From NCBI GenBank assembly GCA_938045545.1, contig CALIBN010000007.1, forward strand, positions 16,073-80,072: a stretch of 64,000 nt of DNA, given 5' to 3'. This DNA comes from an uncultured archaeon. GTDB lineage: Archaea > Thermoproteota > EX4484-205 > JAAOZP01. The position numbers and the translations under genes are program-made. Of this stretch, positions 11,591 to 62,732 are shown one piece after another (positions within the stretch are counted from its first letter, which is position 1; the number at the start of each line of letters is the position of its first letter). The notes beneath the pieces were generated by a model. That model had not been told where the DNA came from. It saw nothing but the letters and a program-made list of their open reading frames with translations, and did no database searches.

Positions 11591-11591
11591 C

Positions 11592-19762: not shown

Positions 19763-19837
19763 ACGGGCTTAATTTAAGTTTTCCGGTGTTTCTGTTTCCG
19801 AAAATGATGTGCTAAAATATTTTTTAATCAACCGTTT

Positions 19838-39448: not shown

Positions 39449-39897
39449 TCCTTAACCTTCTCCTCGATAACTATGCTTTCTATCGCTGTGAACGGATACT
39501 GCCCTTTCTCATCCTTCTCAATCTCCTTAACCATGTCCCAGACCGTTAGTAAAGCTGCAGCCACCCCGGTTAAAGCCTCCATCTCCACACCGGTCTTAGA
39601 CTCTGAGACAACCCGACATACTACTGAAACCCTGTCTTCCCCCGTTTGAAACTCGACAGCTATATGTGTTAGAGGAATAGGGTGGCAGCCGGGTATCAGC
39701 TCAGGAGTCTTCTTAACAGCTAGGATTGCTGAAACCTTTGCAACAGTAAGAACATCGCCTTTCGCAATCCTACCGGTTTTCAACGCATCCACTGTTTCGC
39801 GCCTAAGCCTTATCCATCCCTTTGCAACAGCCATCCTGCGTGAAGGCTCCTTGCCGCTTATGTCGACCATCTCCAGCCCCTTTTCGTTCCAGTTCAA
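39436..39897 (-). CDS. moaC: Cyclic pyranopterin monophosphate synthase MoaC
   Basis: 153 aa, with conserved MVDISGKE…, HMGVT… and GVEMEALTAVSVALLTVYDM-like regions. Confidence 0.8.
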   Translation of the reverse strand: MNWNEKGLEMVDISGKEPSRRMAVAKGWIRLRRETVDALKTGRIAKGDVLTVAKVSAILAVKKTPELIPGCHPIPLTHIAVEFQTGEDRVSVVCRVVSESKTGVEMEALTGVAAALLTVWDMVKEIEKDEKGQYPFTAIESIVIEEKVKDWTI

Positions 39898-43233: not shown

Positions 43234-44811
43234 TTGGGAAACCAACTGAAAGGGAAATTGCTCAGAGAAGCCTCTTCAAAAAGGCAGGATGGCGGAAAGA
43301 AAATAGTGTTAACCGCGTCTGCAGTGGAAATGAGCGATTTCAACCTAAACCCGTTCATAGCCTTTTCAGCAGGGTTCCCCCTGCCATTTTCTAAGAGGCT
43401 CCTCAGGGAAAGGCTTTATCCTCCGCCACCGTTAAACGATGATGGAACCATTAAGCATGCCCCATACGGCTTGAGAAAAATAGAGTCTCTCCTTGTAGAC
43501 GAGTTTGGCGAGGAGAACGTTGCAACCGTTTACCCGACCATGCTTGAAATGTTCGTAGGAAAGGAAACAAGGGTTGTAGGGATTTCTTCAATGGATCCGT
43601 TGGGGATAGGGTTTGTAAGCAGGACCTACACGAGCCTTATCGGTATAGATGGTAAGCCCGTCACAAGAGTGGAGTTTGAAACACTTCTTTCCAACCCTGT
43701 TTTCAAGAAGTACAGGCCTAAAGTAGTGTTGGGTGGAAGCGGTGCTTGGCAAGTTGTCAAGACAGGGGTTCAGCAGAAGCTAGGGATAGACAGTGTGGTG
43801 ATGGGCGAGGCTGAGGAGGATGTTGTAAACCTCTTCAGAAAAGCCTTGAACGGTGAAGAGCTTCCGAAGCAGCTGGTGTGTAGTAGGCCCGTGCTTGAAA
43901 AAGTTCCGTGCATTAAGAAAGCATCCCTGTTCGGTGTTGTTGAAGTCACGCGGGGATGCGGAAGAGGATGTCAATTCTGCTCTCCCACGCTTAGACAGAG
44001 ATACTCATTTCCTCTGGAACACGTATTGAAAGAGGTTGACATAAACGCTAGAAGCGGAACCAGGATGATAACTCTTCAGACTGACGATATATTTCTGTAT
44101 AAGGCGGATTCTAGTTTCACGCCGAACGGGGATGCGGTGTTTGAACTGGTTGACTCAGTAGCTAAAGTTAAAGGAGTAAAGTATATTCAGGTGGCGCACG
44201 CGGCTCTTACGCCTGTAGTCTATGACCGTGGGCTTGTTGAAAAAATAGCGCCCACGCTCGTTGAGAAGTCCAGATGGACTTACTTGAACAATCAGAGGTA
44301 TGCGACTTTCGAAATAGGTATTGAAACCGGGAGTGTCAGACTGATGGAGAAATACATGAGGGGGAAGGCGCTGCCATACACGCCTGAAAAGTGGCCTGAT
44401 ATTGTGGTTCAAGCTCTTGGGATACTTAACGACAACCAGATATATCCTTTAGCGACACTCGTAATGGGTCTTCCCACTGAAAACGAGGAGGACGTTACTG
44501 CAACCCTTGAGCTGCTCGACAGGTTGAAGAATAATAGGGTCTTCTTTGTCCCCCTGCTATTCACATCTGAGGAGGATTGCGTTTTAAACAGGGAGAACCA
44601 TGCCGACTTGCATAGTTTATCAGAGCTTCACTGGGATGTTTTCTCAACGTGTTGGAGGCACAACGTGAAAACGTGGAGGGGAAACGGCTTTCAACATTTT
44701 ATCAGAATCGGGGGATTATTCGCCTACTTGGTTTACTACAGGCGGCTGCACGGCCCCTGGGTCCTAAAACATATTCTAAAGGTTTCAGGTTGGGGTGAAG
44801 AACTGCAATAG
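43234..44811 (+). CDS. B12-binding-domain (class B) radical SAM protein
   Basis: N-terminal cobalamin-binding-like domain plus radical SAM core with TRGCGRGCQFCS (Cx4Cx2C) and SFL-like motifs. Length is 525 aa. Alternative start ATG at 43330. Confidence 0.75.
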   Translation: MGNQLKGKLLREASSKRQDGGKKIVLTASAVEMSDFNLNPFIAFSAGFPLPFSKRLLRERLYPPPPLNDDGTIKHAPYGLRKIESLLVDEFGEENVATVYPTMLEMFVGKETRVVGISSMDPLGIGFVSRTYTSLIGIDGKPVTRVEFETLLSNPVFKKYRPKVVLGGSGAWQVVKTGVQQKLGIDSVVMGEAEEDVVNLFRKALNGEELPKQLVCSRPVLEKVPCIKKASLFGVVEVTRGCGRGCQFCSPTLRQRYSFPLEHVLKEVDINARSGTRMITLQTDDIFLYKADSSFTPNGDAVFELVDSVAKVKGVKYIQVAHAALTPVVYDRGLVEKIAPTLVEKSRWTYLNNQRYATFEIGIETGSVRLMEKYMRGKALPYTPEKWPDIVVQALGILNDNQIYPLATLVMGLPTENEEDVTATLELLDRLKNNRVFFVPLLFTSEEDCVLNRENHADLHSLSELHWDVFSTCWRHNVKTWRGNGFQHFIRIGGLFAYLVYYRRLHGPWVLKHILKVSGWGEELQ

Positions 44812-44816
44812 AGGTT

Positions 44817-45170
44817 CTAAGGGTCTGCAATCATATCTCTAAGCGCTTTATCAACTATTCTCGCTATCTCGACTAGCCCAACCAGTATGCAGGGCACTCC
44901 CCTAAGCCTAGCCAAGTCAGCCGTCATCTGGTCCTGCGTGATGATTACGAGGCTGTTTCTAGCCGCGTGTTCAACTATTATCTCGTCCTCCGCCCCCTTT
45001 AAACCCACGTCGTCAACCGTCTGAGCATCCCACCCAAGTGTTTTAAGAAACGGCTTTAAACCGGAGTACATTTCGTCCAATAGTATCTTGACGTTTTTCA
45101 CGAATAGCATCCTGTTCAGGCTTTTCTTTAATCTTTTCTCTACTAAAGTTGAAGACAATCTTAAACGCAA
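44817..45170 (-). CDS. Mut7-C (DUF82) PIN-like RNase-domain protein
   Basis: The N-terminal KILLDEMYSGLKPFLKTLGWDA matches the Mut7-C family opening (FLxDxMLGxLARWLRxLGYD). Length is 117 aa. Confidence 0.45.
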   Translation of the reverse strand: MRLRLSSTLVEKRLKKSLNRMLFVKNVKILLDEMYSGLKPFLKTLGWDAQTVDDVGLKGAEDEIIVEHAARNSLVIITQDQMTADLARLRGVPCILVGLVEIARIVDKALRDMIADP

Positions 45171-45196
45171 AAGTCTTATAAAAGAGAGGCTGCTTT

Positions 45197-46327
45197 ATGA
45201 TTCGTCGGATGTGGGTTCTCAGAAGCGATGCGGTAACCGTGTGGAACAATAAGGATGTTCAGAAAAGGCTCTCATGGTATAGGGCTGTTATGAAAAACCT
45301 TAAACCAGCCAAATTCCTAATAGCTAAAAGCATCCCGGCACAGGTCGGGGTTAAGGATTTAGAGAACATGAAGGAGGAGGAGCTCTGGAGGCTTCATGAA
45401 AAGCTTAGCTTAGAGTTCAGGAGAATCCATGAGTCTGTGAAGACAGGTAAGGCTGGTGAGACCACTCCTGCAGAAGTAAGCTTCCTAGATGTAAAGATAA
45501 TGCTCTCTGAAAGACTTGTTGAACACTGCGAGTTTTGCGAGAGAAGGTGCAGAGTGAACCGGAGGAGGGGGGAGCAAGGGTTCTGCAGAGTAGGGTTTGT
45601 AAGCAGGGTTTCAACATGGTTCCACCACTTCGGGGAGGAGGGACCGTTAATAGGCGAGGGAGGCTCTGGAACAATATTCTTCGCAGGCTGCAACCTCGGG
45701 CCTTGCGTCTACTGTCAGAACTGGGATATCTCTTCAGATCCTGGGAACGGGGGCGAGGTTAATCCGAGAACACTGGCGCTAATCAGCAGGAGGCTTAGTG
45801 CCGAGAATGCTGCAAACATAAACTACGTGGGGGGAGACCCGACGCCGAATCTCCATACAATACTCTCATCCCTTAAACATTTGGATGTAAACATTCCGCA
45901 GCTCTGGAACAGCAACATGTATTGCAGCACTGAGGCTATGAGGCTTCTCGCTGAAGTCATAGACATATGGCTACCGGACTTCAAGTATGGCAGCGACGAA
46001 TGCGCCAGAAGGCTTTCAAAGGTGGAAAAATATTTCGAAGTGGTGGCGAGAAACCACAGGATTGCCTACGAGAACGGCGATATGATAATAAGACACCTGG
46101 TTCTTCCTAACCATCTAGAGTGTTGCACCAAGCCTGTTTTAAAATGGATATCTGAAAACACTCCTAACGTTCTCGTGAACATAATGGGCCAGTATCATCC
46201 GGATTACTTGGTGGCGAGAAACCCTGGAGCGTATCCAGATATCGCTAGAAGGCCTAGTGCGAGAGAGATGCAGGAAGCCTATGATTACGCGAGAAGGCTT
46301 AACATAGTTTTCGAACCGGTGTCCTAG
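45197..46327 (+). CDS. PflA-like radical SAM protein with an N-terminal Cys cluster and an atypical Cx4Cx2C SAM-cluster motif
   Basis: N-terminal HCEFCERRCRVNRRRGEQGFCRV is the auxiliary Cys motif of the PFL-AE-like 'AmmeMemoRadiSam-type' enzymes. The radical SAM core is FFAGCNLGPCVYCQNW. Length is 376 aa. Confidence 0.65.
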   Translation: MIRRMWVLRSDAVTVWNNKDVQKRLSWYRAVMKNLKPAKFLIAKSIPAQVGVKDLENMKEEELWRLHEKLSLEFRRIHESVKTGKAGETTPAEVSFLDVKIMLSERLVEHCEFCERRCRVNRRRGEQGFCRVGFVSRVSTWFHHFGEEGPLIGEGGSGTIFFAGCNLGPCVYCQNWDISSDPGNGGEVNPRTLALISRRLSAENAANINYVGGDPTPNLHTILSSLKHLDVNIPQLWNSNMYCSTEAMRLLAEVIDIWLPDFKYGSDECARRLSKVEKYFEVVARNHRIAYENGDMIIRHLVLPNHLECCTKPVLKWISENTPNVLVNIMGQYHPDYLVARNPGAYPDIARRPSAREMQEAYDYARRLNIVFEPVS

Positions 46328-47250
46328 CTAACCCGGTTATCCCAATATGGTTTTTTCAACATAATTGCCTCAATAAACCTCCTTTTTAAATCATCATCGC
46401 CGCCGCCTGAACGCATTAACCCCACTATGTCCACCAAATTATCGTTTCTCAACAAGCAGGGCTTCAGCCTCCCGTCGCAAGTAACCCTGAGCTTAGAGCA
46501 GTGGGAGCAGAAGTCAGGGTTCCCAGTGGGCGAGACTATTTCGACTAGAACCGTCCTTCCGTTTCTGGGGAGCATGTAGATGGGGCGTTGTCCAGTGTAG
46601 TTGACAGTTTTCCCGGCTGATTTTGAGGAGATGGTTTTTTCAACATACTTAAGGCTGACGTGAAACTCTTGGAAAACCTTCTCACCACCCGGAATCGGCT
46701 GGAGCTCTATGAGCTGGAGAACAGCCCCAATGGAGCCAGCGTAATCCAGCATCTTTTCAACATCCTCTTCGTTAACCCCTTTCAGAACAACCATATTTAT
46801 CTTAACAGGGTTTAGGCCACTCTCTAATGCAGCATTTATCCCTTTGAAAACCCTTGAAACATCCCCGCCACCAGTTATCAGGCTGTACTTTGAAGAATCG
46901 AGACTAGGAAGGTTAACGTTAACTCTTGCTAGTCCCGCGTCCTTAAGATCCCCAGCGTATTTTTCAAGGAGGACACCGTTTGTAACGAGCGAAACCTCCC
47001 TGACGAGCGGGGAGATCGCTTTCACCATGTCGACAACGTCTTCTCTAACCAGTGGTTCTCCACCGGTTATCTTAACAGTTTCAACGCCTATGCTGCTAGC
47101 GACCTCGACGATTTTTCTAACCTCGTTTAAAGCCATGCTTCTCCTAGGAGGAGGGTTCCATTCCCTGTGGCAGAAGAAGCAATTAAGGTTGCAGTTCTCC
47201 GTAACGGATATCCTGAGGTTTTTCAATGGCCCTTCGGCCTGTTGAAACAT
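46324..47250 (-). CDS. moaA: GTP 3',8-cyclase MoaA
   Basis: N-terminal LRISVTENCNLNCFFCHREW radical SAM motif. MoaA C-terminal region with CSHCSKLRVTCDGRLKPCL. Length is 308 aa. Confidence 0.8.
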   Translation of the reverse strand: MFQQAEGPLKNLRISVTENCNLNCFFCHREWNPPPRRSMALNEVRKIVEVASSIGVETVKITGGEPLVREDVVDMVKAISPLVREVSLVTNGVLLEKYAGDLKDAGLARVNVNLPSLDSSKYSLITGGGDVSRVFKGINAALESGLNPVKINMVVLKGVNEEDVEKMLDYAGSIGAVLQLIELQPIPGGEKVFQEFHVSLKYVEKTISSKSAGKTVNYTGQRPIYMLPRNGRTVLVEIVSPTGNPDFCSHCSKLRVTCDGRLKPCLLRNDNLVDIVGLMRSGGGDDDLKRRFIEAIMLKKPYWDNRVS

Positions 47251-47431: not shown

Positions 47432-49414
47432 TTGAGTGAGACGAAAACAGTCTCCGTCATAGAAGAGTTAAAAGCAGGTTTCACCGTTAAAGCAATAATC
47501 CTCGCAATAGTCTTCGGAATAATAGGGCTCTTCGCAAACATAGCTACTTGGTGGGGCCTAGGGATAAGCTTAGAACCTGTTTTTGCAGGCAGAGTAGGGG
47601 CACCAATATACCCACCATACGGGCTCGTTTTCATACTTATTCTTGTAAGTCTGTTCATAAAGGCTTTGACGATCCAGGAGATCGCGGTGATCACTACAAT
47701 AGCGTTCATAACTGCAGACAGCCCGTTCGTCATCGGCGCTTTCCTACAATTCATATTTGCAGGAACCTACTTGGTTAAGACCAACCCCAACGTAGAGGCC
47801 CTGCTAAAGTATTACCCGCCGCTGTGGACCCCGGGCGACTATGACCTGATCGCCCCCGCTTGGGCGGGAAGGGCAGCTGTACCATTGGGCAGGTTGCTCC
47901 CATACCTAGCGTTCTGGATGATAATTATAATCATTTGGTGTCTAATGATGGTTTTCCAGGCCGCGTTAATCAGGCTGCAGCTGATTAAAAAAGAGAGGCT
48001 CCCATTCCCAATGATGATTCCGATTAACGAGATGCTTTCACAGCATCAGAAGGGAACCTTTACGCAATACATGAAGAAGCTTCCATTCATAGCAGGGGTA
48101 ATACTGGGATGCATAATAGGTATACTAGGGGCTTTAAACTATATTATTAAATTCACGACGGTGTTCTTCGCCTTCGGACAGTTCTACCAGCAATGGTTCG
48201 CCGACCTTATGAGCTCGATCTCTCAAAACACGATACAATCCTGGTGGATGTTCATACCCGCGGATGCTGCAATCATGTACCTTGCCCCCTTGGACATTCT
48301 TTCCTCAATAGTCATCTGGCTGTTCATCTTCCAAATCCTGTTCCCACTGGTCCTCGTCAACACTGGGGTGATAACGCCCAACACTAACCCGGCTGGTACA
48401 GGCCCGTTCCCATGGCTAAACTTCAGCTACTACTGGGCCCCGTTGGCGATAGGCATCTGGACAATAGTCTTCGGCTACAAGACTTATGCTGAGAGCTTGA
48501 AGAAGAAGGAGTTTGCCCCGGGCGAACTCCCAAATTCACTCGTATGGTACGGCTTCGCAGCCACATGGCTTCTCTGGCTCATCCTATGGGTCATATTCGG
48601 AGCCAACGTTCTCCCGTTGCTAGTGGGCTTCATCGTGTGGTTCCTGTATACGACGGGTATGGTTGCTGTCTGCGGGGCAACAGGTACCTGGGTAGCTGGA
48701 GGAGACGCTGTTCCGGCGAGATTCTTAGCGTGGGGAGTAGGCACTGGAATAGGCCTGTTCCCAGCAAGCGGTGCGGCTGCTAAAACTCAATCCGCGTGGG
48801 CAACGATGGCCGGCGTCAGCATAACTGCCAGCATGGGTGGAGTGATTCATCAGAACACGCATTCCGCTTGGGCCTACACGTCAACCTACACGATGGTTGA
48901 ACCCGCTAAGGTGAAGGAAACAGACATTCTAAAGTCGCACATCCTAGGAATACTTATAACGGTGCTTATCGGTGTTCCAGTTGCCGTCTACATAATCTAC
49001 GGGACTGGAATAGGCCAGCTGAAGGCCTGGGGCCTCGGCAGCGGTGCAAACATCACCGGCTTCCAAGTGCCATGGGTAGTGGCTGATGCAGCGCCTCCTG
49101 CAGGCTTCCACTGGTGGATGTTCCCACTGGCTATAGTCGTGGTCGGCATCTTGTTCTTCCTGAGGGCTAGGTTCGCATGGTTCTTCTTCAGCCCGTATGC
49201 GTTATTCTTCTACTCTGGAATGTGGCTGATAAACGCCGGGGTAGCGTGGATACTTAAACTCATAACGCTTAAAGTATTCGGAGCGAAGGCCTACGAAGAG
49301 GTTGGAGTACCCGTAGCAATAGGCTTCATGGTTGGTGTCACTCTCATGGCTACGATAATCATGGGAGTGAACTCTGCTACCGGAGGAATATCAGTAGGAC
49401 CGACAGGCTATTAG
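47432..49414 (+). CDS. Polytopic membrane protein (about 14–16 TM), unknown family; paralog of 54082..56001
   Basis: 660 aa, highly hydrophobic. It shares an E(R/K)LPFP motif (KKERLPFPMMIPINEM) and overall architecture with 54082..56001. TTG start, with a TATA-like ctttataagtt about 33–44 nt upstream. Confidence 0.5.
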   Translation: MSETKTVSVIEELKAGFTVKAIILAIVFGIIGLFANIATWWGLGISLEPVFAGRVGAPIYPPYGLVFILILVSLFIKALTIQEIAVITTIAFITADSPFVIGAFLQFIFAGTYLVKTNPNVEALLKYYPPLWTPGDYDLIAPAWAGRAAVPLGRLLPYLAFWMIIIIIWCLMMVFQAALIRLQLIKKERLPFPMMIPINEMLSQHQKGTFTQYMKKLPFIAGVILGCIIGILGALNYIIKFTTVFFAFGQFYQQWFADLMSSISQNTIQSWWMFIPADAAIMYLAPLDILSSIVIWLFIFQILFPLVLVNTGVITPNTNPAGTGPFPWLNFSYYWAPLAIGIWTIVFGYKTYAESLKKKEFAPGELPNSLVWYGFAATWLLWLILWVIFGANVLPLLVGFIVWFLYTTGMVAVCGATGTWVAGGDAVPARFLAWGVGTGIGLFPASGAAAKTQSAWATMAGVSITASMGGVIHQNTHSAWAYTSTYTMVEPAKVKETDILKSHILGILITVLIGVPVAVYIIYGTGIGQLKAWGLGSGANITGFQVPWVVADAAPPAGFHWWMFPLAIVVVGILFFLRARFAWFFFSPYALFFYSGMWLINAGVAWILKLITLKVFGAKAYEEVGVPVAIGFMVGVTLMATIIMGVNSATGGISVGPTGY

Positions 49415-49564
49415 ATCCAAACCCTCTTTTTTTTGAGCCACGGCTTAGTTGCTTCCATGTCAGCTTAAGCCTCCTTATCGTTACCCTTGAGGACATGAGC
49501 TTCCTTTTAAAGAGGGGTTTTAACGACGTAAAGTTTAAATCAATCTCGGTGGAGTTCCACGTTA

Positions 49565-52500
49565 ATGATAATAGTCCAAAGAAAATATTTGCTTGTTGCT
49601 GTGTTTTTAACGATGCTTGTTGTCCCTCTCTTAGCAATACGGGGGAGTCGGGAGGCTGTTGAAGAAAAAACCTGGTTAAACCAGGAAGCCCCGTTGGTTT
49701 CAGCTGACAGGATAAGAGACTATGTGGCGTTGTTTTCATCAATACAGTCAAGGTTCACAGGCTACCCGGGCTCTCTCCAAGCAGCCAGAATCATAATGGA
49801 CAAGTTTAACGAATCTGACCTGAATGTTAGCCTTTTCAACTACACGGTGCTGGTCCCGTATGACTCCGGCTCATACATGAAGGTGGGTGGAAGAGTGATT
49901 AAGGCTTATGCTCTCTACCCTAATGTTGTAGCCACGGGTTTGAAAAAGGCTTCCGGAAAGCTTGTCTACGCGGGCCACGGTACTCCGGAGGAGCTTAGGG
50001 GACTTGACGTGAATGGTAACATAGTCCTCCTTGAGTTTAACTCCGGGTCTGCATGGGTAGACATGGTTAAGCTGGGCGCCTCCGGCATCGTTTTCCTAGA
50101 GGACGGTGACACGAATCGCTTCGAAGCATTGAGAAAAATCTCCTCTGTCCCACTGAATACTCCAAGAATATACGTAGCAGGCCAGGAAGCGTCTCAGCTC
50201 AGAGAAATCGCTAAAAACAATCCGGTTGCAGAGCTCGTTAACGGTATGGAGTGGAGAGAAGTTGAGGCTGTTAACGTGATTGGGGAAATGAAGGGTGTTG
50301 AAGACCCGTCTAAAGTAATTATTATAACGGCGAACTATGACTCCGGGTCGATTGTACCAGGGGTCGCTCCGGGGGCTGATGAAGCCATAGGTATTTCTGT
50401 CATGCTTGAATTCATCAGATCTTTGAAGCATCAGGGCCTCTCGCCGAGATACACAGTTCTTTTTATAGCGATGTCTGGACATTGGCAGGCCCTAGCCGGT
50501 GCTAGAAGCTTCGTGGAACAATTCTACTTTAACAATTCCGCGATAGGCAGGGAAGTCTTCCCGTATCTCGTCATAGACATTAAGATCAGCTCAGGAAGCC
50601 CGCACTTAAACCTTGTTTACAGCGGCATGATGTACTCCATCAATACTCAGTATATTGCAAGCAGGTTCAGAGACCTCCGAATATTTTTTGCAAATTCAAT
50701 TAAATCTTTCATTCAATCTTTCCCAAGCTATAGCGAAAAGGTTTTAACGAGCAACCTGTATCCTGGTCTATACGGCATTGCATACGACTCGGCTAGTCCC
50801 GGTTTTCAGAAGGGCCTTGCCTTCAAGCATATTCTCGAAATGGAGCCTTTTGAGCTGGCTAACAGCATTGGGCTCGGAATAATTACTTTCGACGACTTCA
50901 GGTATCGCGTTTTCACCCCGTCTGACAGGCTGGAGTTCATCGATTTCCAGAACGTCATACCTCAAGCACAGCTAACATTCCAGATCCTGTTCGACCTGTT
51001 GAAGGCTCCGGTTGAAGAATGGTATCCAGGCAGTTGGGAGGGTTTAAGACCGTTAAGAATGGGTGAAACCTACACTGGAGTTGGTTTCACTGTATTAAAG
51101 GTTGAAGTGGTTGAATACGACCCGACTACGCCAGGCCTATACAGCCCGGTTCCAAAAGCTTTCGTCACAGTGGGGAGCACGTTGGACCCATTCACGCTGA
51201 TGTTTTCTAAATCAGATTCTTCAGGCTTCGCGGTGTTCAGGGGTTTAAGGCCATATCCTGAGGCGACGACCGCGTTGCAAACCCCTATTCAGAGCTACGT
51301 GATCGACGAGGAGGGGAGAATAATCTACGCCCCAGACAGGGGGCAGCATGGTGCCGGAACATATCCTTCAAGCGTAACGATAGTCTCACCTGAACAATTC
51401 ACGAGGAACGTTGTGTTTAAATGCGGGAGCGCCGTCATGTTCGATTTAACCGACCCGGACACTCTGCAGGCTGCAGTCTCTCCAAGCTCGATGTTTGGAA
51501 CCACGAATGCTTATTCGGCACAGCTCAGGAATTACGGTGGCTACGAGACCCCGCTAACGATAAGCGTGATGATGATGCAGATACCTGGATACTCTATTCT
51601 AGACTCGTTCGGCTACGAGTTCGACCCCATTCTGTCGGTTGCACAGGTTTACGCCCCGCCCCGCATCAGGTTCGGCTTCGTTGTTAAAAGCACGTCTATG
51701 GCTAAAACGGTTGCAGTCTATACGAATGTGACTCTGCAGAACCAGGATGGGTACGGGTATTATTTGGGTAAAGAGGGGGACAGGCTGCTCGTAAAGGGTG
51801 GAATACCCGGCATGTTCATGGAGATGTTGACATTAGCATATGGCAGGTATTTGGCTCAAGCAGATATTCAAGTTCTGGACCCAAAGACGATGGAGAATTT
51901 GAATTATGCGATAATGTTTAACCAGACGCTTCTTCAGACGGCTTCGAAAAAGGATTACAGCGGGTTCTTGACGAGCGCTTTAATGGCTTGGGGGTTCTCC
52001 AGCAAGGCTTACCAAAGCTCTTTGAGCGTTGTACGCGACGCGGTTACGAGCATAATTCTCGTATTCGCTTTAGCAATACCCTTCATCCTTCTGTTTTCCT
52101 CCCTGGTTTACAATTTGAGCAGCGGCTTTAGAAGCGTCGCCCTTACTCTTGCTGTGGCGCTGTCCGTGGCGTTGCTTTTAACAGTATTCCACCCGGGTTT
52201 CGGGCTAGCGGTAAACGTGCCTGCAATATTCATAGGGACGCTGATAGTTGCCCTGGTTATTCCAGTGATGTTCTTCCTGTTCTCCAACTTCTCTACAGGG
52301 CTTTCCAGGCTGAGGAGAGAAGTTCTTGGTGCGCACTTCCTTGAGAGAAGCGGATTCGACGTTTCGTTTTCAGCCGTATCCATAGGAATAGGCAACTTGA
52401 AGAAGCGTAAGTTTAGAACAGTATTAACGATGCTGTGCATAGTAATCATAAGCTTCTCGCTTTCGTCTCTGACTTCCGTGACGGAGATAAGGGCTTTAAG

Positions 52501-54082
52501 AGTTACCCCAACGCCCACCGAGGTAACTTACAACGGGGTGCTGCTGAGAACAGCCAACTTCGTCCCTTTAAACAGGAAGTTGATCGACCTAGTGTCAACC
52601 TACATATCTGGCAAGACACTTTATGCTCCGAGGTACTGGGTTTATCTTCCTTCCACTCCTGGAGAGGGGACTGCTGGCACAATAGTAATATCCTCTGAGA
52701 AAAGCAAGGCTTTGATCTACGCGGCTGTCGGAATAAGCCCTGTAGAGTTGAAAGCATCGTTCAAGCAGGTTGAAAAAATACTTTTAGAAGGATCCATGTT
52801 TAAAGAGGAAGAGGTTTTCTCAGCATTATTGCCGAACAGCCTTGCGGAAAGCCTTAAGGTGAAGACAGGCGAATACGTCTGGGTTAACGGCTTCCGCTTA
52901 AGAGTAGCAGGCATACTCAACACGACCGCAATTCTAGCATATGTGAAAGATTCAGATGGTTTCGTGGACGTCCTGCCCATGGACACGTATATTCTTTCGA
53001 ACGAGAGAACTCCTCCCCGTGCTGAGGCAGCGTTGAGCCCAGGATCCGTAATATTCGTGCCCGCCGGCCTGGTTGAATTGATTCCGGAGGCATGCTTGAC
53101 AAGCGTTTTCATACCGGCAGACGGGATGGTGTTCGAGGAACTTTACGAGAAGTGCGGCGAGGTTTTCTCCGCTTTCGAAGGTTTAAACATTTATCTGACG
53201 TATAACGGCACTGTCTACCGGTTCTCCAAGGAGAACGTTATCTCGCTATTCGGCTTCCAGTTCATTCTAATACCCATGATCATCGCGGGGCTGATAACTA
53301 TGTCGACGATCCTAGGCGGAGTCATGGAGAGAATACGTGAGGGCTACATATATAGCAGTCTAGGCCTAGCACCGGTTCAAGTAGGCTTAATGTTCTTCGG
53401 GGAGAACATCATATACGCTATCGTAGGCTCGATGACAGGCTATCTCGGCGGCATCTCAGCCTCATACTTGACGAGGAAAATAGGCTTGATAAACCTCCCT
53501 GTGAACTACACGTCGTCATTCGTCATGATAGCTGTCGGTCTGGTGATAGTGCTGGTTCTGGCAGCGTCGCTCTACCCGTTCTACAGAGTCTCCGTCACAG
53601 TAACCCCGTCGCTAGAGAGGAAGTGGCGTCTCCAGACTAAGCCGAAGGGAGACTCGTGGGACATACCGATACCTTTCCGTATAAAGGAGGATGATAGGGC
53701 CGCAGGAATGGCTGTTTTCCTCCATGAGTATCTCTGGAATAAGAGGATAGAGAGGGCAGGAGTCTTCTCCATTGAAAACGTTGAGGTCAGCAAGATAGAG
53801 TCTGGGATTGGTATTAAGTCAAGAGTCTGGCTGGCACCATTCGAGCAGAACATAAAGCAGGATATGAACATAGTGATATTGAAGAGCAAGACAGAGCAGA
53901 ATTTCCTTATTTTAATGAATCTAACCAGGGTGTCCGGACCCTACGACTCATGGGTCAGGTTCAACTATCCCTTTATTGATGAGATAAGGAAGCAAATGCT
54001 GATATGGAACGTTCTCAATCCAGAGGAGCGGGAGAAATACATACGTATGGCTAGGGAGCGTAGCCTAGTAGGTGAGAAATAA
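49565..54082 (+). CDS. Giant (1505-aa) membrane protein: signal-anchor TM + ~760-aa extracytoplasmic PA/M28-peptidase-like (degenerate) region + tandem FtsX-like permease TM modules + ~180-aa cytoplasmic tail
   Basis: N-terminal TM LLVAVFLTMLVVPLLAI. M28-like segment IIITANYDSGS…GADEAIGISVMLEF…SGHWQALAGARSF, in which the canonical H-x-D, D-D and E-E residues are replaced. FtsX/MacB-like TM signatures: KKRKFRTVLTMLCIVIISFSLSS (TM1-like) and LIPMIIAGLITMSTILGGVMERIREGYIYSSLGLAPVQVGLMFFGENIIYAIVGSMTGYLGG (TM2–4-like). An earlier three-TM block is consistent with a first FtsX-like half. Confidence 0.55.
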   Translation: MIIVQRKYLLVAVFLTMLVVPLLAIRGSREAVEEKTWLNQEAPLVSADRIRDYVALFSSIQSRFTGYPGSLQAARIIMDKFNESDLNVSLFNYTVLVPYDSGSYMKVGGRVIKAYALYPNVVATGLKKASGKLVYAGHGTPEELRGLDVNGNIVLLEFNSGSAWVDMVKLGASGIVFLEDGDTNRFEALRKISSVPLNTPRIYVAGQEASQLREIAKNNPVAELVNGMEWREVEAVNVIGEMKGVEDPSKVIIITANYDSGSIVPGVAPGADEAIGISVMLEFIRSLKHQGLSPRYTVLFIAMSGHWQALAGARSFVEQFYFNNSAIGREVFPYLVIDIKISSGSPHLNLVYSGMMYSINTQYIASRFRDLRIFFANSIKSFIQSFPSYSEKVLTSNLYPGLYGIAYDSASPGFQKGLAFKHILEMEPFELANSIGLGIITFDDFRYRVFTPSDRLEFIDFQNVIPQAQLTFQILFDLLKAPVEEWYPGSWEGLRPLRMGETYTGVGFTVLKVEVVEYDPTTPGLYSPVPKAFVTVGSTLDPFTLMFSKSDSSGFAVFRGLRPYPEATTALQTPIQSYVIDEEGRIIYAPDRGQHGAGTYPSSVTIVSPEQFTRNVVFKCGSAVMFDLTDPDTLQAAVSPSSMFGTTNAYSAQLRNYGGYETPLTISVMMMQIPGYSILDSFGYEFDPILSVAQVYAPPRIRFGFVVKSTSMAKTVAVYTNVTLQNQDGYGYYLGKEGDRLLVKGGIPGMFMEMLTLAYGRYLAQADIQVLDPKTMENLNYAIMFNQTLLQTASKKDYSGFLTSALMAWGFSSKAYQSSLSVVRDAVTSIILVFALAIPFILLFSSLVYNLSSGFRSVALTLAVALSVALLLTVFHPGFGLAVNVPAIFIGTLIVALVIPVMFFLFSNFSTGLSRLRREVLGAHFLERSGFDVSFSAVSIGIGNLKKRKFRTVLTMLCIVIISFSLSSLTSVTEIRALRVTPTPTEVTYNGVLLRTANFVPLNRKLIDLVSTYISGKTLYAPRYWVYLPSTPGEGTAGTIVISSEKSKALIYAAVGISPVELKASFKQVEKILLEGSMFKEEEVFSALLPNSLAESLKVKTGEYVWVNGFRLRVAGILNTTAILAYVKDSDGFVDVLPMDTYILSNERTPPRAEAALSPGSVIFVPAGLVELIPEACLTSVFIPADGMVFEELYEKCGEVFSAFEGLNIYLTYNGTVYRFSKENVISLFGFQFILIPMIIAGLITMSTILGGVMERIREGYIYSSLGLAPVQVGLMFFGENIIYAIVGSMTGYLGGISASYLTRKIGLINLPVNYTSSFVMIAVGLVIVLVLAASLYPFYRVSVTVTPSLERKWRLQTKPKGDSWDIPIPFRIKEDDRAAGMAVFLHEYLWNKRIERAGVFSIENVEVSKIESGIGIKSRVWLAPFEQNIKQDMNIVILKSKTEQNFLILMNLTRVSGPYDSWVRFNYPFIDEIRKQMLIWNVLNPEEREKYIRMARERSLVGEK

Positions 54083-56001
54083 TGGAAGAGGCTGCACGTG
54101 AAAAAGAAGCTTTCATCCCTGGGCTGACAATCGTATCGGTCTCCGCAGTATTGTTCGGGCTTGTGGTAATCGTGCCCGCAATAATCTATTTAGGCTGGGC
54201 CGTCGGCTCTTTAGGTGGGACCGAGAGGTTCATCCCGGTTTTCGTCACAATCCTCCTATTCACCGAGGCGGGGAGGCTCGTTAAGAGGTATATAACATCG
54301 CAGGAGGCTTACATAATATACTTCATGCTTCAAGCCATAGCCCTATGGTTCGTCGGCGGAGGAATGTTCGGCGATTTCCTTATAAGGTATTACTACAGGT
54401 CCGCCCCTTACACTATCCTATACGGTATCGCTGAAAAGCTTCCCACATGGTATGTCCCTGAGCTCGGGAGCTACGGCCCACTCCACAGGACTTTCCTCTC
54501 CCCAGACTGGGTGATTCCGATATCGATTTCTCTAGCTGTTAACGTTTGCGTGCTGATGATAGATTACGGTGTTTCTTTCATAACAAACATGCTCTACATA
54601 GAGATAGAGAAGCTCCCATTCCCCGTCGCACCCATAGACTACCAGGCGATTTCAACCCTTACTGAGAGAACACCTGAGAAAATAATGTACTTCTCTTTCG
54701 CCGCTGTGATAAGCTTCATCTACGAGTTCGCCATCTATGGGATTCCAAACATAACCTCGATTTTCCTAGGCAGGGCTATAACCGTCATACCGTATCCCTG
54801 GGTGGACTTAACCACGGGGATTGAAAGAATCCTGCCAGGAGCCGTTTTTGCAGTCGGAACTGATATTGCTCAATACATGGTGGGCTGGCTTATCCCGTTT
54901 AACGCCGCGGTATGGATGTTCATCGGGTCGGTGGCAGTCTGGGTTTTCGGAAACTCTATAGCGCTCAGGATTGACCATCCCTACTTCAGCATGTGGCAGA
55001 GAGAATGGACTTACGGCGCGTCAATCCAATGGTGGTGGCAGAGAGCAATCTACGACCTGTGGGCAAGTCCACAAGTAGGTTTAACACTCGGGATCGCGCT
55101 TGGAATACTTGCTGTAGGAGCCAAAAACATTGCGCGAGCAATCCTCTCCCTCAGACATCTTTCGGCAGAGCAGCTTAAAACATCATACTTGCCTTTCAGC
55201 TGGATAGTTGCTTTAATCGCCGCCGGGTCTATAGGCGGGTTGCTTGTTTCAGTCTCCCTTGCCCCAGAACTATGGTTCGTCTGGGTGGTGACCTGGACGA
55301 TAGTTCCGTTTATTCAAGGTATTCTGACAGCCAGGGCCACTGCTGAAACCGGGTTATCTGTCACCATACCCTACATTAGGGAGGCGTTCTTCGTTTCTTT
55401 CACAAGGCCTGGAGACGTGGTCCCGTGGGTGGTTCCGACTCATGTGACAAGTAGCGCCGGGATAATTACGCACAGGGTCTACGTGGCTAAGCTCCTGAAA
55501 GTCAGGCCCCTGGACTACTACAAGGCCTACCTCATATTCTTCATAGTAGCTATTCTCCTATCCCTGCTGTACGTTTCAATATTCTGGGCGATGACACCCA
55601 TACCTTCTGCCTTCTACCCCTACGCCAGCTACTCCTGGCCTATTTCAGCCCTCTACTTCTCCCTATGGGTCTCCAGGTCGATCGAGATTTTCAAGGTGGA
55701 CGTGATAGCTATCTCAAGCGTCTTATCCTTCATAATGGTCGTCGTCTCCTCCCGTTTCCCAACGCAATACTTCTCCCCAATAGGCTTCCTATACGGTTTT
55801 CAAAACATTCCCGCTTACACGCTTCCACCGTTGATCGGAGCCCTGATCGGAAAATGGCTTGAGAGGAGAATGGGTAAGGATAAATGGGTGGTGCGGAGAG
55901 GAGTGATAATCGCCGGAACATTCTGCGGGATCGCGCTTGCAGTAGCAGCCGCTGTCGCCGTCACTATAATGGGGAGAGCGATAACAGCTAAACCTTTCTA
56001 G
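54082..56001 (+). CDS. Polytopic membrane protein (about 14 TM), unknown family; paralog of 47432..49414
   Basis: 639 aa. Its start overlaps the stop of the 1505-aa gene (ATAATGG). It shares IEKLPFPVAPIDYQA with the upstream paralog. Confidence 0.5.
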   Translation: MEEAAREKEAFIPGLTIVSVSAVLFGLVVIVPAIIYLGWAVGSLGGTERFIPVFVTILLFTEAGRLVKRYITSQEAYIIYFMLQAIALWFVGGGMFGDFLIRYYYRSAPYTILYGIAEKLPTWYVPELGSYGPLHRTFLSPDWVIPISISLAVNVCVLMIDYGVSFITNMLYIEIEKLPFPVAPIDYQAISTLTERTPEKIMYFSFAAVISFIYEFAIYGIPNITSIFLGRAITVIPYPWVDLTTGIERILPGAVFAVGTDIAQYMVGWLIPFNAAVWMFIGSVAVWVFGNSIALRIDHPYFSMWQREWTYGASIQWWWQRAIYDLWASPQVGLTLGIALGILAVGAKNIARAILSLRHLSAEQLKTSYLPFSWIVALIAAGSIGGLLVSVSLAPELWFVWVVTWTIVPFIQGILTARATAETGLSVTIPYIREAFFVSFTRPGDVVPWVVPTHVTSSAGIITHRVYVAKLLKVRPLDYYKAYLIFFIVAILLSLLYVSIFWAMTPIPSAFYPYASYSWPISALYFSLWVSRSIEIFKVDVIAISSVLSFIMVVVSSRFPTQYFSPIGFLYGFQNIPAYTLPPLIGALIGKWLERRMGKDKWVVRRGVIIAGTFCGIALAVAAAVAVTIMGRAITAKPF

Positions 56002-56003
56002 AG

Positions 56004-57053
56004 TTAGCGGCTGTGCTTATTTCCTTTTAGCGCGCCTATCTCGGAAGTATAGAGAATTAGTCGGTCTACCTCCGTGCTCCATCCAAGCTCCCTGGTGTGA
56101 TTCGGATCCACCGCCTCAACCCATATTAGCCACCTGTCGCCCCTTATCTTGTCGAATAAGGCTTGAGCATAGGTGTGAATCGGGTACTCGGCGTGTTCGA
56201 AACGTGAAAGCGGCGTCCAAACTTTTTCGAAAATAGTTTCTAGATTAAGCCTTCCTAAATCAATACTGTAGGCGACAAAATGTTTGGTAAGCGCGTTTCC
56301 CCTTATCACGTCCAGCGTTTTCGTGCCGATGAAAATCAGACCCGTTGAGCCTGGGATTATTGAGCCGCTGAGCAGGAAGAAGTCTGGTTGACTCTTGCCG
56401 TCAACAGTAGGTACTCCAAGCTTAACCCAGTTCTTCCCATCGCTACCGACAGCCAACGCCGTCTTCACGATGCTTGTGCCCGCCCTCCTAGCCTTGTAGA
56501 GGCAGAAGTATCTGCCATCAACTATGTCTATAGTGGCGTCTCTCGATTCTCCACTGTCGTATTCCTCGCTTCCTCTGATTACGAAGCCTTCAGGCTCCCA
56601 TGGGCCGGAAGGGTCTTCCGAAGTAAGTAGGAAGGTTTCCCACCTGCTCTCTGTGAAAGCCTTCCCCTCGACAACCAAGTTCTCCCTTGAAACATTCAGC
56701 GAAAGATAAAGATGGTATCTCCCAGTCAAAGGGTCTTTTAAAAGCTGCTGGTTCTCTATGCTTAGAATCTGGTTTTCCGTCATCTTGCTCAACTCTTCCT
56801 TAGTAATCCATGTTACCAGACCATAATTCTCACCGTCCTTCGACCTGTATATTTCCACAGCGTACCCTCTCTTCATTTCCCTCATCTCCCTGGGCCTACT
56901 CGTCAACCAGTATTCCCTATTCTCCTCATCGATCCACATTTTTCCAGCGCCGCACCAAGAGCCAGGGTTGAAATTGGGAGGGTCGAGGAGCACCTTGTTA
57001 AACCTTCTTTTGGAGAAGATGGCTTGAGGCGGGTATAGGCCATACCAGCTCAT
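56004..57053 (-). CDS. Beta-propeller glycosidase-like protein with BNR-type SxDxGxxW motifs (cytoplasmic)
   Basis: Motifs SKDGENYG, SEDPSGPW and GSDGKNWVK. Length is 349 aa. No signal peptide. Confidence 0.4.
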   Translation of the reverse strand: MSWYGLYPPQAIFSKRRFNKVLLDPPNFNPGSWCGAGKMWIDEENREYWLTSRPREMREMKRGYAVEIYRSKDGENYGLVTWITKEELSKMTENQILSIENQQLLKDPLTGRYHLYLSLNVSRENLVVEGKAFTESRWETFLLTSEDPSGPWEPEGFVIRGSEEYDSGESRDATIDIVDGRYFCLYKARRAGTSIVKTALAVGSDGKNWVKLGVPTVDGKSQPDFFLLSGSIIPGSTGLIFIGTKTLDVIRGNALTKHFVAYSIDLGRLNLETIFEKVWTPLSRFEHAEYPIHTYAQALFDKIRGDRWLIWVEAVDPNHTRELGWSTEVDRLILYTSEIGALKGNKHSR

Positions 57054-58195: not shown

Positions 58196-59326
58196 TTAGA
58201 ATATGTCTTCCGCGTAGGCTACACCTGCCGCATGTATGCCCCATTCTCGATATTTTAAGCATGTGGCTGAGTAATAAGCCGTATAGATGGTTCCGTCATC
58301 AAGCTGGACACTACTTGGGTATCCGCAGTCAGCGTCTGTCGCATAAGAGACTAAGGCGGCTCTCCTGTTAAACATCCATGATCGGCCGCCGTCGAGGCTT
58401 ATCACCGCATGAACCCCGTAAGGTACCTTCCGGTGTCCAAAGGTTAGCAAAACCTTCCCGCTCTTAAGGTAACAAAGGTCCCCGGGGTGTTCACCGCCAC
58501 CAGTCACCTGTTTAGGCTCAGACCATGTGTAACCCATGTCTCGAGAGCGACTGATGGCAACGCATTCGCCGCCACCCTGAGCATGGGGTCCGCGGAGGGC
58601 TGCCAACAAGTCTCCATCGGGTAATTGTAGAAGAGCGGTTTCATTATATCCTTTAGCGACGATGGTTAAATCCTTCCATGTGAAACCATTGTCCTCGGAG
58701 CGTAGAATATAGCTGGTCTCTATCGAGCCTTCTAAAGTATATTCTTGAGAGTAAACAGACATAAGAATAGTTCCATCATCCGTCTGAAGCATTCTCCCAT
58801 AGGGTGAAACCGCCCCTTTAAACGGAAACTCCAGCGGCTCTGGCTTACTCCACTCCCTACCACCGTTGGTCGACCTCGTTACGAACATTTGCCACCTCAT
58901 CCCATTCCTCTTCCACAACCCATTCTCATAACCCCAGACTCTTGCAAAGGCAACCAGCAGAGTACCGTCCTTCAATTGACATAGCGCCGGATTCCTATCG
59001 TCAGTCTGAGAAACAGTTACGATTCTTGGCATTGTCCATGTCTTACCCCCGTCTTTAGATAACGAGAGTTCCAAGCGGCCTCGTTGACCAACATGGTAAT
59101 CCCCCATGCGGAAGACAACCGCTAGGTTTCCGTCACGGAGTTTAGTCAAAACCGGGAAATATCCACCCATAGGAGTTATAAGATATCTTCTAACCCGCTT
59201 AAGGGAACCAACCATCGCCTCATCGCAAAACTGCATTCCATACTCGAACTCCTCATCGGCTTTCATGTTTTTCCACGGCCCACCGTTTTTCCATATGCGG
59301 GCATTCTTATTAATTTTGATGTTCAT
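58196..59326 (-). CDS. BNR-repeat sialidase-like beta-propeller protein (cytoplasmic)
   Basis: Motifs SKDGGKTW, STNGGREW, SEDNGFTW, SRDMGYTW and SLDGGRSW. Length is 376 aa. No signal peptide. Confidence 0.65.
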   Translation of the reverse strand: MNIKINKNARIWKNGGPWKNMKADEEFEYGMQFCDEAMVGSLKRVRRYLITPMGGYFPVLTKLRDGNLAVVFRMGDYHVGQRGRLELSLSKDGGKTWTMPRIVTVSQTDDRNPALCQLKDGTLLVAFARVWGYENGLWKRNGMRWQMFVTRSTNGGREWSKPEPLEFPFKGAVSPYGRMLQTDDGTILMSVYSQEYTLEGSIETSYILRSEDNGFTWKDLTIVAKGYNETALLQLPDGDLLAALRGPHAQGGGECVAISRSRDMGYTWSEPKQVTGGGEHPGDLCYLKSGKVLLTFGHRKVPYGVHAVISLDGGRSWMFNRRAALVSYATDADCGYPSSVQLDDGTIYTAYYSATCLKYREWGIHAAGVAYAEDIF

Positions 59327-61634: not shown

Positions 61635-62732
61635 TTACGTATATTCTCCGTATTTTCTGATCAGCTTTATGTATTCTTGAAATGCGCTGAAAGAAACATC
61701 AGGCGGCACACTGTGGTCTGAACATGCTATGTATCCCCCGCCTTTTTTTGCGACGGGTATCTTGCGGGATATTTCAACCTCAATCTCCTTGGGGTTGCCA
61801 ATCTTCCTTGCATCGAGGTTTCCAATGAAGGAAAGGGTCTTCCCATATTTCTCTTTCAGCTCGACAACATCCATTCCCGCCTTAACTTCCATCGGCTGTA
61901 AGGCCGTGAAACCAGCTTCGATCAATTTCGGGATCAACAGGTTCACGTTGCCGTCAGTATGCAATATGGTCGGCATATTCCTCACCCTATAGGCAGAGGT
62001 CATTTGAGCATGCGCCGGCTTCACGAACTCGTCGTAAACCTTCGGGGAGAAGAACGGCCCCTTGTTGTAACCTATATCGTCCCAAACCCACAGTCCGTCA
62101 ACTCCTAGCTTAAGATAGGTTTCCACGATCCTTGAGAAATACTGGCCCAAATGTCTGAAAATATACTTAACGAGGTCCGGATCCCTGTGGATCGCGACTA
62201 ACACCTTGTCCACGCTTTCCCCAAGTATATGTCTAGTTGCTTCAAAAGGGCCTATTATCGAGCAGAATACGGCGTAATGCTCCTTCAACCTCCTTATGCC
62301 TTCCTCAAGCTCCCTCTTAAACGGGTATCTGCTGCTTGAAACCCTGATTGGCAGCTCAGGGTCTAACAGGGGCTCAAGCTTCTCTTTAAAATCCTCAATC
62401 GTCGAGACCGATGGTGGTCCAGCGGGATGAGGCGTACCGCTCCTACCGATCCAAGCCTTCACCCTCACGCCCCAGGAATCTATGTATGTTCGAAACTTAT
62501 CATTCTCTTCGAGTATGATGGTGTCATACTTAGGACTTACATCCGGACCTATTAGGTAGATATCGTAGCCAAAATAATCATGTAAGGAAACTCCTCTAGG
62601 CAGGCCCTCGCTATACCATCTCTCCAGGGTTTCGCCCCATGGGAAATCTATGAAGGGAACCCTGTCTGCCTCCTCGTGGTTTAACACTCTTAACACCCGT
62701 TCCCTCGAATCCATGTTTTTCAAAAATCCCAC
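61635..62732 (-). CDS. URO-D-family methylcobamide methyltransferase (MtaA/MtbA-like)
   Basis: N-terminal SRERVLRVLNHEEADRVPFID matches the URO-D/MtaA opening. Length is 365 aa. It is the intact paralog of the pseudogene at 57108..58084. Confidence 0.7.
   Translation of the reverse strand: MGFLKNMDSRERVLRVLNHEEADRVPFIDFPWGETLERWYSEGLPRGVSLHDYFGYDIYLIGPDVSPKYDTIILEENDKFRTYIDSWGVRVKAWIGRSGTPHPAGPPSVSTIEDFKEKLEPLLDPELPIRVSSSRYPFKRELEEGIRRLKEHYAVFCSIIGPFEATRHILGESVDKVLVAIHRDPDLVKYIFRHLGQYFSRIVETYLKLGVDGLWVWDDIGYNKGPFFSPKVYDEFVKPAHAQMTSAYRVRNMPTILHTDGNVNLLIPKLIEAGFTALQPMEVKAGMDVVELKEKYGKTLSFIGNLDARKIGNPKEIEVEISRKIPVAKKGGGYIACSDHSVPPDVSFSAFQEYIKLIRKYGEYT

Follow-up and report, generated by a model that had tools for sequence, protein, structure and literature searches.

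A 64,000-nucleotide stretch of the genome of an uncultured archaeon (contig CALIBN010000007.1; this whole stretch is called the window here) carries, at 49565-54082 on the forward strand, a gene for a 1505-residue membrane protein that is probably, to judge from sequence and predicted structure, the visible part of a large, uncharacterised multi-protein membrane module of a new type. The protein joins an outside domain with the fold of an M28 aminopeptidase, in which the metal-binding residues are largely replaced, to an FtsX-type membrane part, and its gene lies between genes for two membrane proteins of the OPT superfamily. We read it, with a probability of about 0.42, as a non-catalytic ligand-binding head on a MacB-type chassis that works together with a pair of OPT-like permeases. 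The pairing with the two flanking OPT-superfamily genes is the most informative feature of the locus; it was absent from a first note on this DNA, made from the letters alone (the sequence-only reading), which had described a catalytically degenerate peptidase domain in a loop of a tandem FtsX-like permease. The three genes and the parts of the big protein are as follows (aa, amino acids; TM, transmembrane).

47432..49414 (+): partner A, 660-aa polytopic membrane protein, DUF6785, distant member of the OPT/YSL superfamily (Pfam DUF6785, E 5.6e-13)

49565..54082 (+): big protein, 1505 aa, with 8 TM helices, two outside domains and a cytoplasmic C-terminal domain

49586..49639 (+): TM1 or signal anchor, residues 8-25, sequence YLLVAVFLTMLVVPLLAI (hydropathy scan)

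49655..51049 (+): PA + M28-like pseudo-peptidase domain, residues ~31-495 (Pfam M28, HMMER against 2ek8, Foldseek)

49892-50239 (+): PA insert, residues ~110-225 (alignment to 2ek8)

50324..50350 (+): ITANYDSGS, residues 254-262, with Asn257 for the first His ligand and Asp259 retained

50372..50392 (+): GADEAIG, residues 270-276, with Asp272/Glu273 at the bridging-Asp position

50474..50488 (+): SGHWQ, with His306-Trp307 for the Glu-Glu pair (general base and zinc ligand)

51089..51796 (+): beta-sandwich region of the first outside domain, residues ~509-744 (DSSP of the model; no family assigned)

51803..52027 (+): three-helix stalk leading into TM2, residues ~747-821 (DSSP of the model)

52040..52294 (+): TM2-TM4, N-terminal module, residues ~826-910; FtsX-like by topology only, no coupling helix

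52409..53248 (+): TM5 (949-972) and second outside domain (975-1228), MacB periplasmic-core-like (weak Pfam MacB_PCD, Foldseek)

53252..53593 (+): true FtsX domain, TM6-TM8, residues 1230-1343 (Pfam FtsX; coupling-helix motif MERIREGYIYSSLGLAP)

53597..54079 (+): conserved tail domain in the cytoplasm, residues 1345-1505, not assigned to a family

54082..56001 (+): partner B, 639-aa polytopic membrane protein, divergent OPT/YSL member (Pfam OPT matches of its orthologues)

The open reading frame (ORF) runs uninterrupted through 1505 codons, as the sequence-only reading had stated, and its length is that of its relatives. It is matched by 62 database clusters, the majority 1450-1540 aa long and with 96-100% of its length covered, so this is a real full-length gene and a fusion artefact is ruled out. 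The organism belongs to Brockarchaeota: at 97% identity, the genome nearest by match is a hot-spring metagenome-assembled genome of Candidatus Brockarchaeota. Relatives also occur in Bathyarchaeia, Thermofilaceae, Thermoproteales, Caldarchaeales and Micrarchaeia, whose genomes often hold 2-4 copies. NCBI and database names for these relatives are "M28 family peptidase" and "FtsX-like permease". A hydropathy scan combined with predicted helices gives eight TM segments (TM1, 8-25; TM2-4, ~826-910; TM5, 949-972; TM6-8, ~1230-1343). Charged and basic residues beside the segments, read from the sequence, place the N terminus inside, with two large loops outside (residues ~26-825, or ~800 aa, and 975-1228) and a cytoplasmic tail of ~160 residues.

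The survey covered 79 loci in species-representative genomes and 4 metagenomic ones, the genome scan for the big gene being made with a 13-sequence alignment; partners were counted around the 42 archaeal big genes that are complete and have 3 kb or more of flanking DNA to both sides. Partner B is encoded at most 1 kb from the big gene in 37 of the 42, A at most 3.5 kb away in 36, and both accompany it in 35; where one genome holds paralogous big genes each copy has its own A and B. The distance matrices of the big protein, A and B are correlated at Pearson coefficients of 0.94-0.97, values matched by none of 999 Mantel permutations, and the big protein and B share their nearest neighbour in 36 of the 48 triads compared. 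When 926 neighbouring ORFs were clustered all against all, no other family turned up in more than 13 of 84 loci; the recurrent extra neighbours are URO-D-like, GFO/IDH/MocA, radical SAM, MFS and KaiC-like proteins, some of them found chiefly among closely related collinear loci. Since no family beyond A and B is conserved near the big gene and the triad is co-inherited, the functional unit is the triad. Judged by these comparisons, A, the big protein and B are inherited, duplicated and diverging together, and are co-evolving.

Partner A belongs to Pfam PF20581 (DUF6785), at 48.7 bits against a cut-off of 25. The ATG of partner B overlaps the TAA stop of the big gene (TAATG). The two are distant paralogues (hhalign probability 99%, E 3.9e-18, 575 columns), a kinship visible at profile level only, as a direct BLASTP comparison of A with B is not significant. 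The link to OPT comes through B: 12 of 36 B orthologues match Pfam OPT (best E 8.1e-12), many relatives carry a precomputed PF03169 assignment, and NCBI names some of them "OPT/YSL family transporter". Sequence searches of the PDB with A, with B and with the A profile returned no match at E <= 10. In the window a 150-nt gap (49415-49564) separates A from the big gene, with a run of eight T directly after the A stop and a TTTAAAT box ~30 nt before the big-gene ATG; these signals suggest that the big gene and B perhaps form a transcription unit apart from A.

Some loci depart from the common arrangement. A subfamily of big proteins of 1556-1590 aa (L039, L045, L047, L051 and L061; match at ~9850-14650 in each) is found without the two OPT-like neighbours, and downstream of it come two tightly coupled genes, one for a membrane protein of 339 aa and one for a soluble protein of 293-296 aa, with no Pfam family and unrelated to A and B. 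The 339-aa and 296-aa genes of L039 and similar loci were considered as split OPT-like proteins and rejected, as they are not OPT-like. Between the big gene and A some loci encode a ~220-aa protein without a Pfam family (12674-13351 on the reverse strand in L046, 14538-15197 in L001), the family being present in 13 loci.

The first outside loop, between TM1 (8-25) and TM2 (~828), does hold the PA/M28-like domain that the sequence-only reading had placed there. Pfam Peptidase_M28 matches at residues 237-319 with an E value of 6.4e-10, above the curated cut-off, covering profile positions 1-79 of 193 only, so the region does not fail the profile check that had been proposed for it. The HMMER alignment to 2ek8 spans query residues 57-317, PA insert included, and the family profile finds 2ek8 at E 1.3e-32 and also matches the PA domains of ZNRF3. 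An AlphaFold model of residues 30-822 (predicted local distance difference test, pLDDT, 89; predicted template-modelling score 0.88) has 2ek8 and BSAP as its best Foldseek matches, followed by transferrin receptor, GCPII and PaAP, at E values of 1e-26 to 1e-21. Pfam, model and Foldseek thus all give an M28 alpha/beta fold, and the 2ek8 alignment and the ZNRF3 profile match give a PA fold inside the M28 core. Pfam PA is recorded for three relatives (P0030, P0039 and P0044) and reaches E 8e-4 on L039; the window protein itself has no direct Pfam PA match.

Residue equivalences were taken from HMMER alignments to solved M28 enzymes (2ek8, Aeromonas aminopeptidase, GCPII) and are therefore alignment-based, not read from structure coordinates. 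In Aeromonas numbering, His97 corresponds to Asn257 of the window protein, Asp99 to Asp259, Asp117 to Asp272/Glu273 (register ambiguous by one residue), Glu151 to His306, Glu152 to Trp307, Asp179 to Asp338 and His256 to Phe450. The strings ITANYDSGS and GADEAIG lie where the sequence-only reading had put them, and two of its substitutions stand: the first His of the H-x-D motif is Asn257, and in place of a Glu-Glu pair there is His306-Trp307. The offset in its hand alignment that might have explained them away is not seen, the canonical first His and Glu-Glu pair being missing at the true positions. At the last two ligand positions, Asp338 aligns with Asp179, but Phe450 occupies the place of His256. 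The further claim that GADEAIG replaces the Asp-Asp pair holds for the motif, which is one residue shorter than G-A-x-D-D/N-A-S-G, and goes too far for the acidic function: with Asp272 or Glu273 probably still at the bridging-Asp position, the motif appears altered, not lost. On these alignments the head cannot form the canonical co-catalytic two-zinc site, and it has lost the Glu general base. Because defining ligands were looked for and are missing, the 1505-aa protein is not, as far as alignment can tell, an active M28 member.

The loss is common to the family. Among 168 non-redundant full-length relatives none has the full M28 ligand set. Position 257 is His in 99 and Tyr in 50, and Asn or Ser in the window's clade (at least 78% identity); position 307 is Trp, Tyr, His or Phe in 154 and Glu in one. 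The Asp179 column holds Asp in only 18, and the His256 column is mainly Gly, Phe or Lys, with His not among the residues listed there. Asp259 is retained in 167 of the 168, position 273 is acidic in 160 and position 306 is His in 151 (Glu in one), which puts Asp259, the acidic residue 273 and His306 in invariant or near-invariant columns, among the best-conserved positions of the ectodomain. Ligand loss throughout the family, together with ~90-99% conservation of the former active-site residues, argues that the site is repurposed and not decaying; on this pattern of conservation, the old pocket is under purifying selection. Hence "catalytically degenerate", the wording of the sequence-only reading, is right for the lost two-zinc centre and understates the rest, given that SGHWQ, Asp259 and Glu/Asp273 are conserved across the 168 relatives. 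The remodelled, strongly conserved pocket comprises Asp259, Asp/Glu272-273 and His306-Trp307-Gln308, and its new role may be binding, a single metal or even other chemistry.

Both fold and sequence liken the membrane part to MacB, LolCE, HrtB and YbbP, which agrees with the earlier assignment to the MacB/FtsX type. Pfam FtsX matches residues 1233-1343 (E 4.6e-11, above the curated cut-off). On the second outside domain the Pfam MacB_PCD match is weak and below cut-off (E 0.0044), PF12704 is precomputed on many relatives, and Foldseek likens the domain to the LolE periplasmic domain 5udf. The family profile aligns with MacB, YtrF and LolC/E across TM5, the second outside domain and TM6-8, the ER-x-RE coupling-helix motif included. 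Glu1255, Arg1256, Glu1259, Ser1264, Gly1267, Leu1268 and Pro1270 are invariant in the 13-sequence alignment, and the coupling-helix motif is invariant in archaeal and bacterial members alike. A model of residues 815-1505 (pLDDT 83.5) has Foldseek matches to MacB, LolC/E, HrtB, YbbP and BceB. An FtsX domain with its preceding TM helix and outside domain is therefore present at residues ~949-1343.

The N-terminal half is different. Comparison of residues 815-925 with 1222-1350 by hhalign gave a probability of 3% for a tandem repeat, a profile search against the PDB found no additional FtsX match in the N-terminal module, and TM2 and TM3 are connected by a 6-residue loop where a coupling helix would be expected. 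A tandem FtsX arrangement at sequence level, as in BceB and YbbP, is thus not supported, and neither is the tandem permease of the sequence-only reading; what remains FtsX-like in the N-terminal half is its topology of 1+3 TM helices, and this is a statement about topology only. The TM2-4 signature that had been called well preserved is found in the C-terminal module and is missing from the N-terminal one. As the N-terminal module is without a coupling helix, a single chain has one ATPase docking site only.

The tail domain (residues 1345-1505) has no Pfam family. It was found in 1314 proteins at E <= 1e-3 and in 788 at E <= 1e-10 among 1.84 billion cluster representatives, that is, in at least 788 clusters at 50% identity. 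In the 150 best matches listed it is always C-terminal, most of these proteins being 1430-1580 aa long and some ~1045 aa, with the shortest probably fragments. Foldseek gives a weak likeness to Bet v1/START-like and DcrB folds (E 0.02-0.06). A 1049-aa paralogue (L013, 8156-11302) has the chassis in common, TM3 through tail domain, but its first outside domain is shorter and unrelated, so the head is exchangeable on a constant chassis. Similar paralogue ORFs (~930-1130 aa) adjoin triads in L022, L053, L078 and L080, with weaker ones in L024, L026 and L059; this suggests either exchangeable heads or a second chassis subunit.

A mechanotransmission permease, as the sequence-only reading had it, implies an ABC (ATP-binding cassette) ATPase. 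The FtsX/MacB-type module is there, but the ATPase is not: no archaeal locus of the 42 encodes one less than 1 kb from the big gene, widening the span to 5 kb brings one into only 5 loci (of other kinds, or not conserved neighbours where examined), and no MacB-type ATPase lies in the 64-kb window. The archaeal loci are likewise without a small FtsX partner nearby. The ABC genes of the window were considered as partners and rejected: those at 9788-16234 (reverse strand) are three consecutive fused type IV exporter genes of 600, 586 and 763 aa, the last with a weak N-terminal match to a bacterial PH domain, and the one at 37505-38458 is DrrA-like and goes with an ABC-2 permease. A DUF1854 gene at 13453-13968 interrupts the exporter run.

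Cognate ATPases of the LolD/MacB class do stand beside the permease in five distant, probably bacterial relatives (L085, L086/L087, L088, L089 and L090), one of which NCBI names Planctomycetes. There A, a big protein of 1596-1804 aa and B, or two of these, are encoded in one gene string with an FtsX protein of 224-493 aa and two ABC ATPases, whose closest relatives are MJ0796, LolD and MacB (E ~1e-63 to 1e-65). L090 has the full order A, big gene, B, small FtsX gene and two ATPase genes; the order varies among loci, no A was seen in L089, where the contig ends just past the second ATPase gene, and a small PqqD-like protein sometimes belongs to these extended operons, which amount to the archaeal triad enlarged to six or seven genes. 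The operons tie the family firmly to MacB-type ABC machines, and they suggest that two coupling helices, one in the small FtsX protein and one in the C-terminal module of the big protein, are matched one to one with the two ATPases. For the archaeal module two readings remain, work without ATP or a borrowed, shared energiser encoded elsewhere: the near-invariant coupling-helix motif favours a conserved cytoplasmic partner, whereas the missing ATPase and small FtsX protein in 42 loci favour independence.

In the reading we favour, the big protein would be the central subunit of a conserved three-protein membrane module, with the dead-peptidase head serving as a substrate receptor outside the cell. 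The most likely substrate would be an oligopeptide or some other small organic molecule of the kind a pocket of the aminopeptidase type can take up. An oligopeptide is suggested by that pocket, by the kinship with OPT and by the PqqD-like protein of the bacterial operons; PqqD is a peptide-binding fold, so its presence fits the peptide theme. The head would hand the substrate to the OPT-like pair, with uptake driven by the proton gradient, and the FtsX-type chassis would position or gate the head. Characterised OPT/YSL members are proton-coupled importers. The archaeal form of the module would have no dedicated ATPase, and in the bacterial relatives a conformational cycle powered by ATP would come in with the small FtsX protein and the two LolD/MacB-class ATPases. 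The expansion to several sets in a genome, their heads divergent and their chassis constant, resembles the diversification of nutrient receptors.

Several points weigh against this reading. The window's own partner B has no Pfam OPT match at E <= 1, and by sequence both A and B are very strongly diverged from characterised OPT transporters. The complex of the three proteins and its substrate are inferred from sequence, predicted structure and gene context. The near-invariance of the coupling helix in archaeal loci without an ATPase is what we would expect if an ATPase encoded elsewhere were still used. The MacB-type machines described to date export or extract substrates, with no importer known among them. 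A glycan is also a credible ligand: Trp, His and Gln are predicted to line the pocket, and because glycoside hydrolase genes, rather than peptidase genes, are often near triads, the ligand could be a glycan.

A rival reading makes the archaeal module an ATP-driven MacB-type (type VII ABC) machine, with a small FtsX protein and two ATPases encoded elsewhere and common to the paralogous triads. ATP would then power movements of the ectodomain and the outward expulsion or extraction of a substrate, such as a peptide or a surface component, with the OPT-like proteins as the route across the membrane or as accessories. We consider this unlikely, though a serious contender. Its model is the bacterial gene string with an FtsX protein and two ATPases closest to MJ0796, LolD and MacB, but no archaeal locus of the 42 has such an enzyme within 1 kb, the window offers only type IV exporters and a DrrA/ABC-2 pair, and the small FtsX protein is missing along with the ATPases. 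ATPases shared between systems are known for other ABC systems, and several triads per genome would make a shared energiser economical. The coupling-helix motif, which binds the ATPase in MacB-type systems, is invariant in archaea and bacteria, yet each chain provides one docking site, the N-terminal module having no coupling helix.

Two further readings concern the head. It could be an enzyme re-tooled around a new mononuclear-metal or metal-free catalytic site, which would trim substrates outside for uptake of the products by the OPT-like permeases; Asp259, Glu/Asp273 and His306 would be candidate residues, with the His or Tyr257 of most relatives and Ser262/Ser304. The former active-site residues are among the most conserved of the ectodomain and line one pocket by homology to solved M28 enzymes, and PDB 2anp, a Glu151His mutant of the Aeromonas enzyme, has His at the very general-base position. 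That mutant reportedly retains residual activity. We nevertheless regard catalysis as improbable, given that the equivalents of Glu152 and His256, which make up one zinc site, are absent in essentially all 168 relatives, that the Asp179 equivalent is Asp in only 18, and that the window's own clade has exchanged His257 for Asn or Ser, a change that speaks against an indispensable metal ligand at this position. Transferrin receptor and nicalin, known M28-fold proteins that have lost ligands in this way, are not enzymes. Taking the annotation at face value, as an active extracellular M28 aminopeptidase merely anchored by a permease-like membrane domain, has next to no chance of being right: the Pfam M28 match is above cut-off and NCBI calls several relatives "M28 family peptidase", but that match ends at profile position 79 of 193 and four of six zinc-ligand or general-base positions are substituted in the window protein.

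Compared with MacB, LolCDE, FtsEX, YbbAP and BceAB, the module shares the C-terminal four helices, a true FtsX unit with ER-x-RE, the placing of a large outside domain between helices 1 and 2 of each module, and a MacB-periplasmic-core-like second outside domain, with matches to MacB, LolC/E, HrtB, YbbP, BceB and YtrF. It differs in that the archaeal loci have no ATPase or second FtsX protein and the N-terminal half is not detectably FtsX. Further differences are the single chain of 8 TM helices, the first outside domain (~800 aa) with a PA/M28 fold in place of Porter/Sabre subdomains, the extra conserved cytoplasmic tail of ~160 aa and the two obligate OPT-like partners. FtsEX with PcsB, EnvC, CwlO or RipC, and YbbAP with TesA, are similar in concept, an FtsX module being coupled to an outside protein of hydrolase fold, and YbbP is matched structurally here; in our case the hydrolase fold is fused into the loop and disabled, and OPT-like partners are absent from those systems.

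The head itself has its closest matches (residues ~40-320; profile E 1.3e-32, Foldseek E 6e-26) in the bacterial aminopeptidases 2ek8 (Aneurinibacillus), YwaD/BSAP 6hc6 (Bacillus subtilis) and PaAP 8acr (Pseudomonas), with which it shares the order of PA insert and M28 core; those enzymes are soluble, active two-zinc proteins with the full His/Asp/Glu-Glu/Asp/His ligand set. In its loss of metal ligands, and in having a PA (apical) and M28-like domain as receptor or scaffold outside the membrane, it resembles the pseudo-peptidases of the transferrin receptor, nicalin and NAALADL type, which, in contrast, are eukaryotic and have a single TM anchor, whereas here a polytopic, permease-like prokaryotic protein carries SGHWQ. 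The helical dimerisation domain of transferrin receptor and GCPII was not identified in the window protein.

On the transporter side, B orthologues match Pfam OPT, and the logic of a receptor-fed transporter would resemble, by analogy, the TRAP/TTT secondary transporters, in which no membership is claimed. Characterised OPT proteins are not, to our knowledge, in need of partners, and we know of no OPT protein that pairs with an FtsX-type protein or occurs as a conserved heteropair. By analogy, the module would work like a cross between FtsEX- or YbbAP-type machines and receptor-assisted secondary transporters. In the searchable library we found no relevant literature on DUF6785, DUF6784, FtsX with M28 in archaea, OPT with FtsX, or orphan MacB, nor any paper that treats the parts of this family in combination. 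As a tentative proposal, which we hold with rather less than even confidence, the A-big-B triad and its bacterial six-gene version may represent an unrecognised class of membrane machine, an FtsX/MacB module joined to a heteromeric OPT pair and equipped with a pseudo-peptidase recognition head.

The family is large, with at least 788 tail-domain clusters and several copies per genome in hot-spring and sediment archaea. An FtsX-type protein with two OPT-like permeases, with or without MacB-class ATPases, is outside the current picture of either transporter superfamily. The partnership offers a natural experiment on whether FtsX-type mechanotransmission can do without ATP hydrolysis. If the proposed class of machine is real, it would be the first in which a MacB-type module serves a pair of secondary transporters, and its archaeal FtsX-type protein might be the first of its kind to work without any ATPase. 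The head would be a prokaryotic parallel to transferrin receptor and nicalin, a peptidase fold recruited as receptor or scaffold. A metabolic reconstruction of Brockarchaeota infers protein degradation from predicted extracellular peptidases (PMC8065059). If such peptidase counts rest on family-level homology, these pseudo-enzymes would inflate them in Brockarchaeota, Bathyarchaeia and related archaea.

Among the neighbouring genes, glycan-related ones stand by the triads in some clades, in the window at 40626-43097, 56004-57053 and 58196-59326 and in L001 at 5148-7865 and 17571-21605; the kinds seen near triads are GH2 beta-mannosidase-like, weakly GH43-like, BNR/sialidase-like, CBM4_9, GH42-like and GH3. 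Their recurrence could hint at a carbohydrate ligand, or simply mark genomes rich in carbohydrate-active enzymes. A URO-D family gene (MtaA/uroporphyrinogen-decarboxylase-like) lies at 61635-62732 on the reverse strand of the window, and the family occurs within 10 kb of a triad in 13 of 84 loci, which may only reflect its commonness in these genomes. MoaC and MoCF-biosynthesis genes are found in the window at 38945-39897. Directly upstream of A, at 43234-47250, are three radical-SAM genes of 525 aa, 376 aa and, MoaA-like, 308 aa; the 376-aa gene adjoins the triad in 9 loci and the MoaA-like gene in 6, counts that take in L007 and L010, which are closely related.

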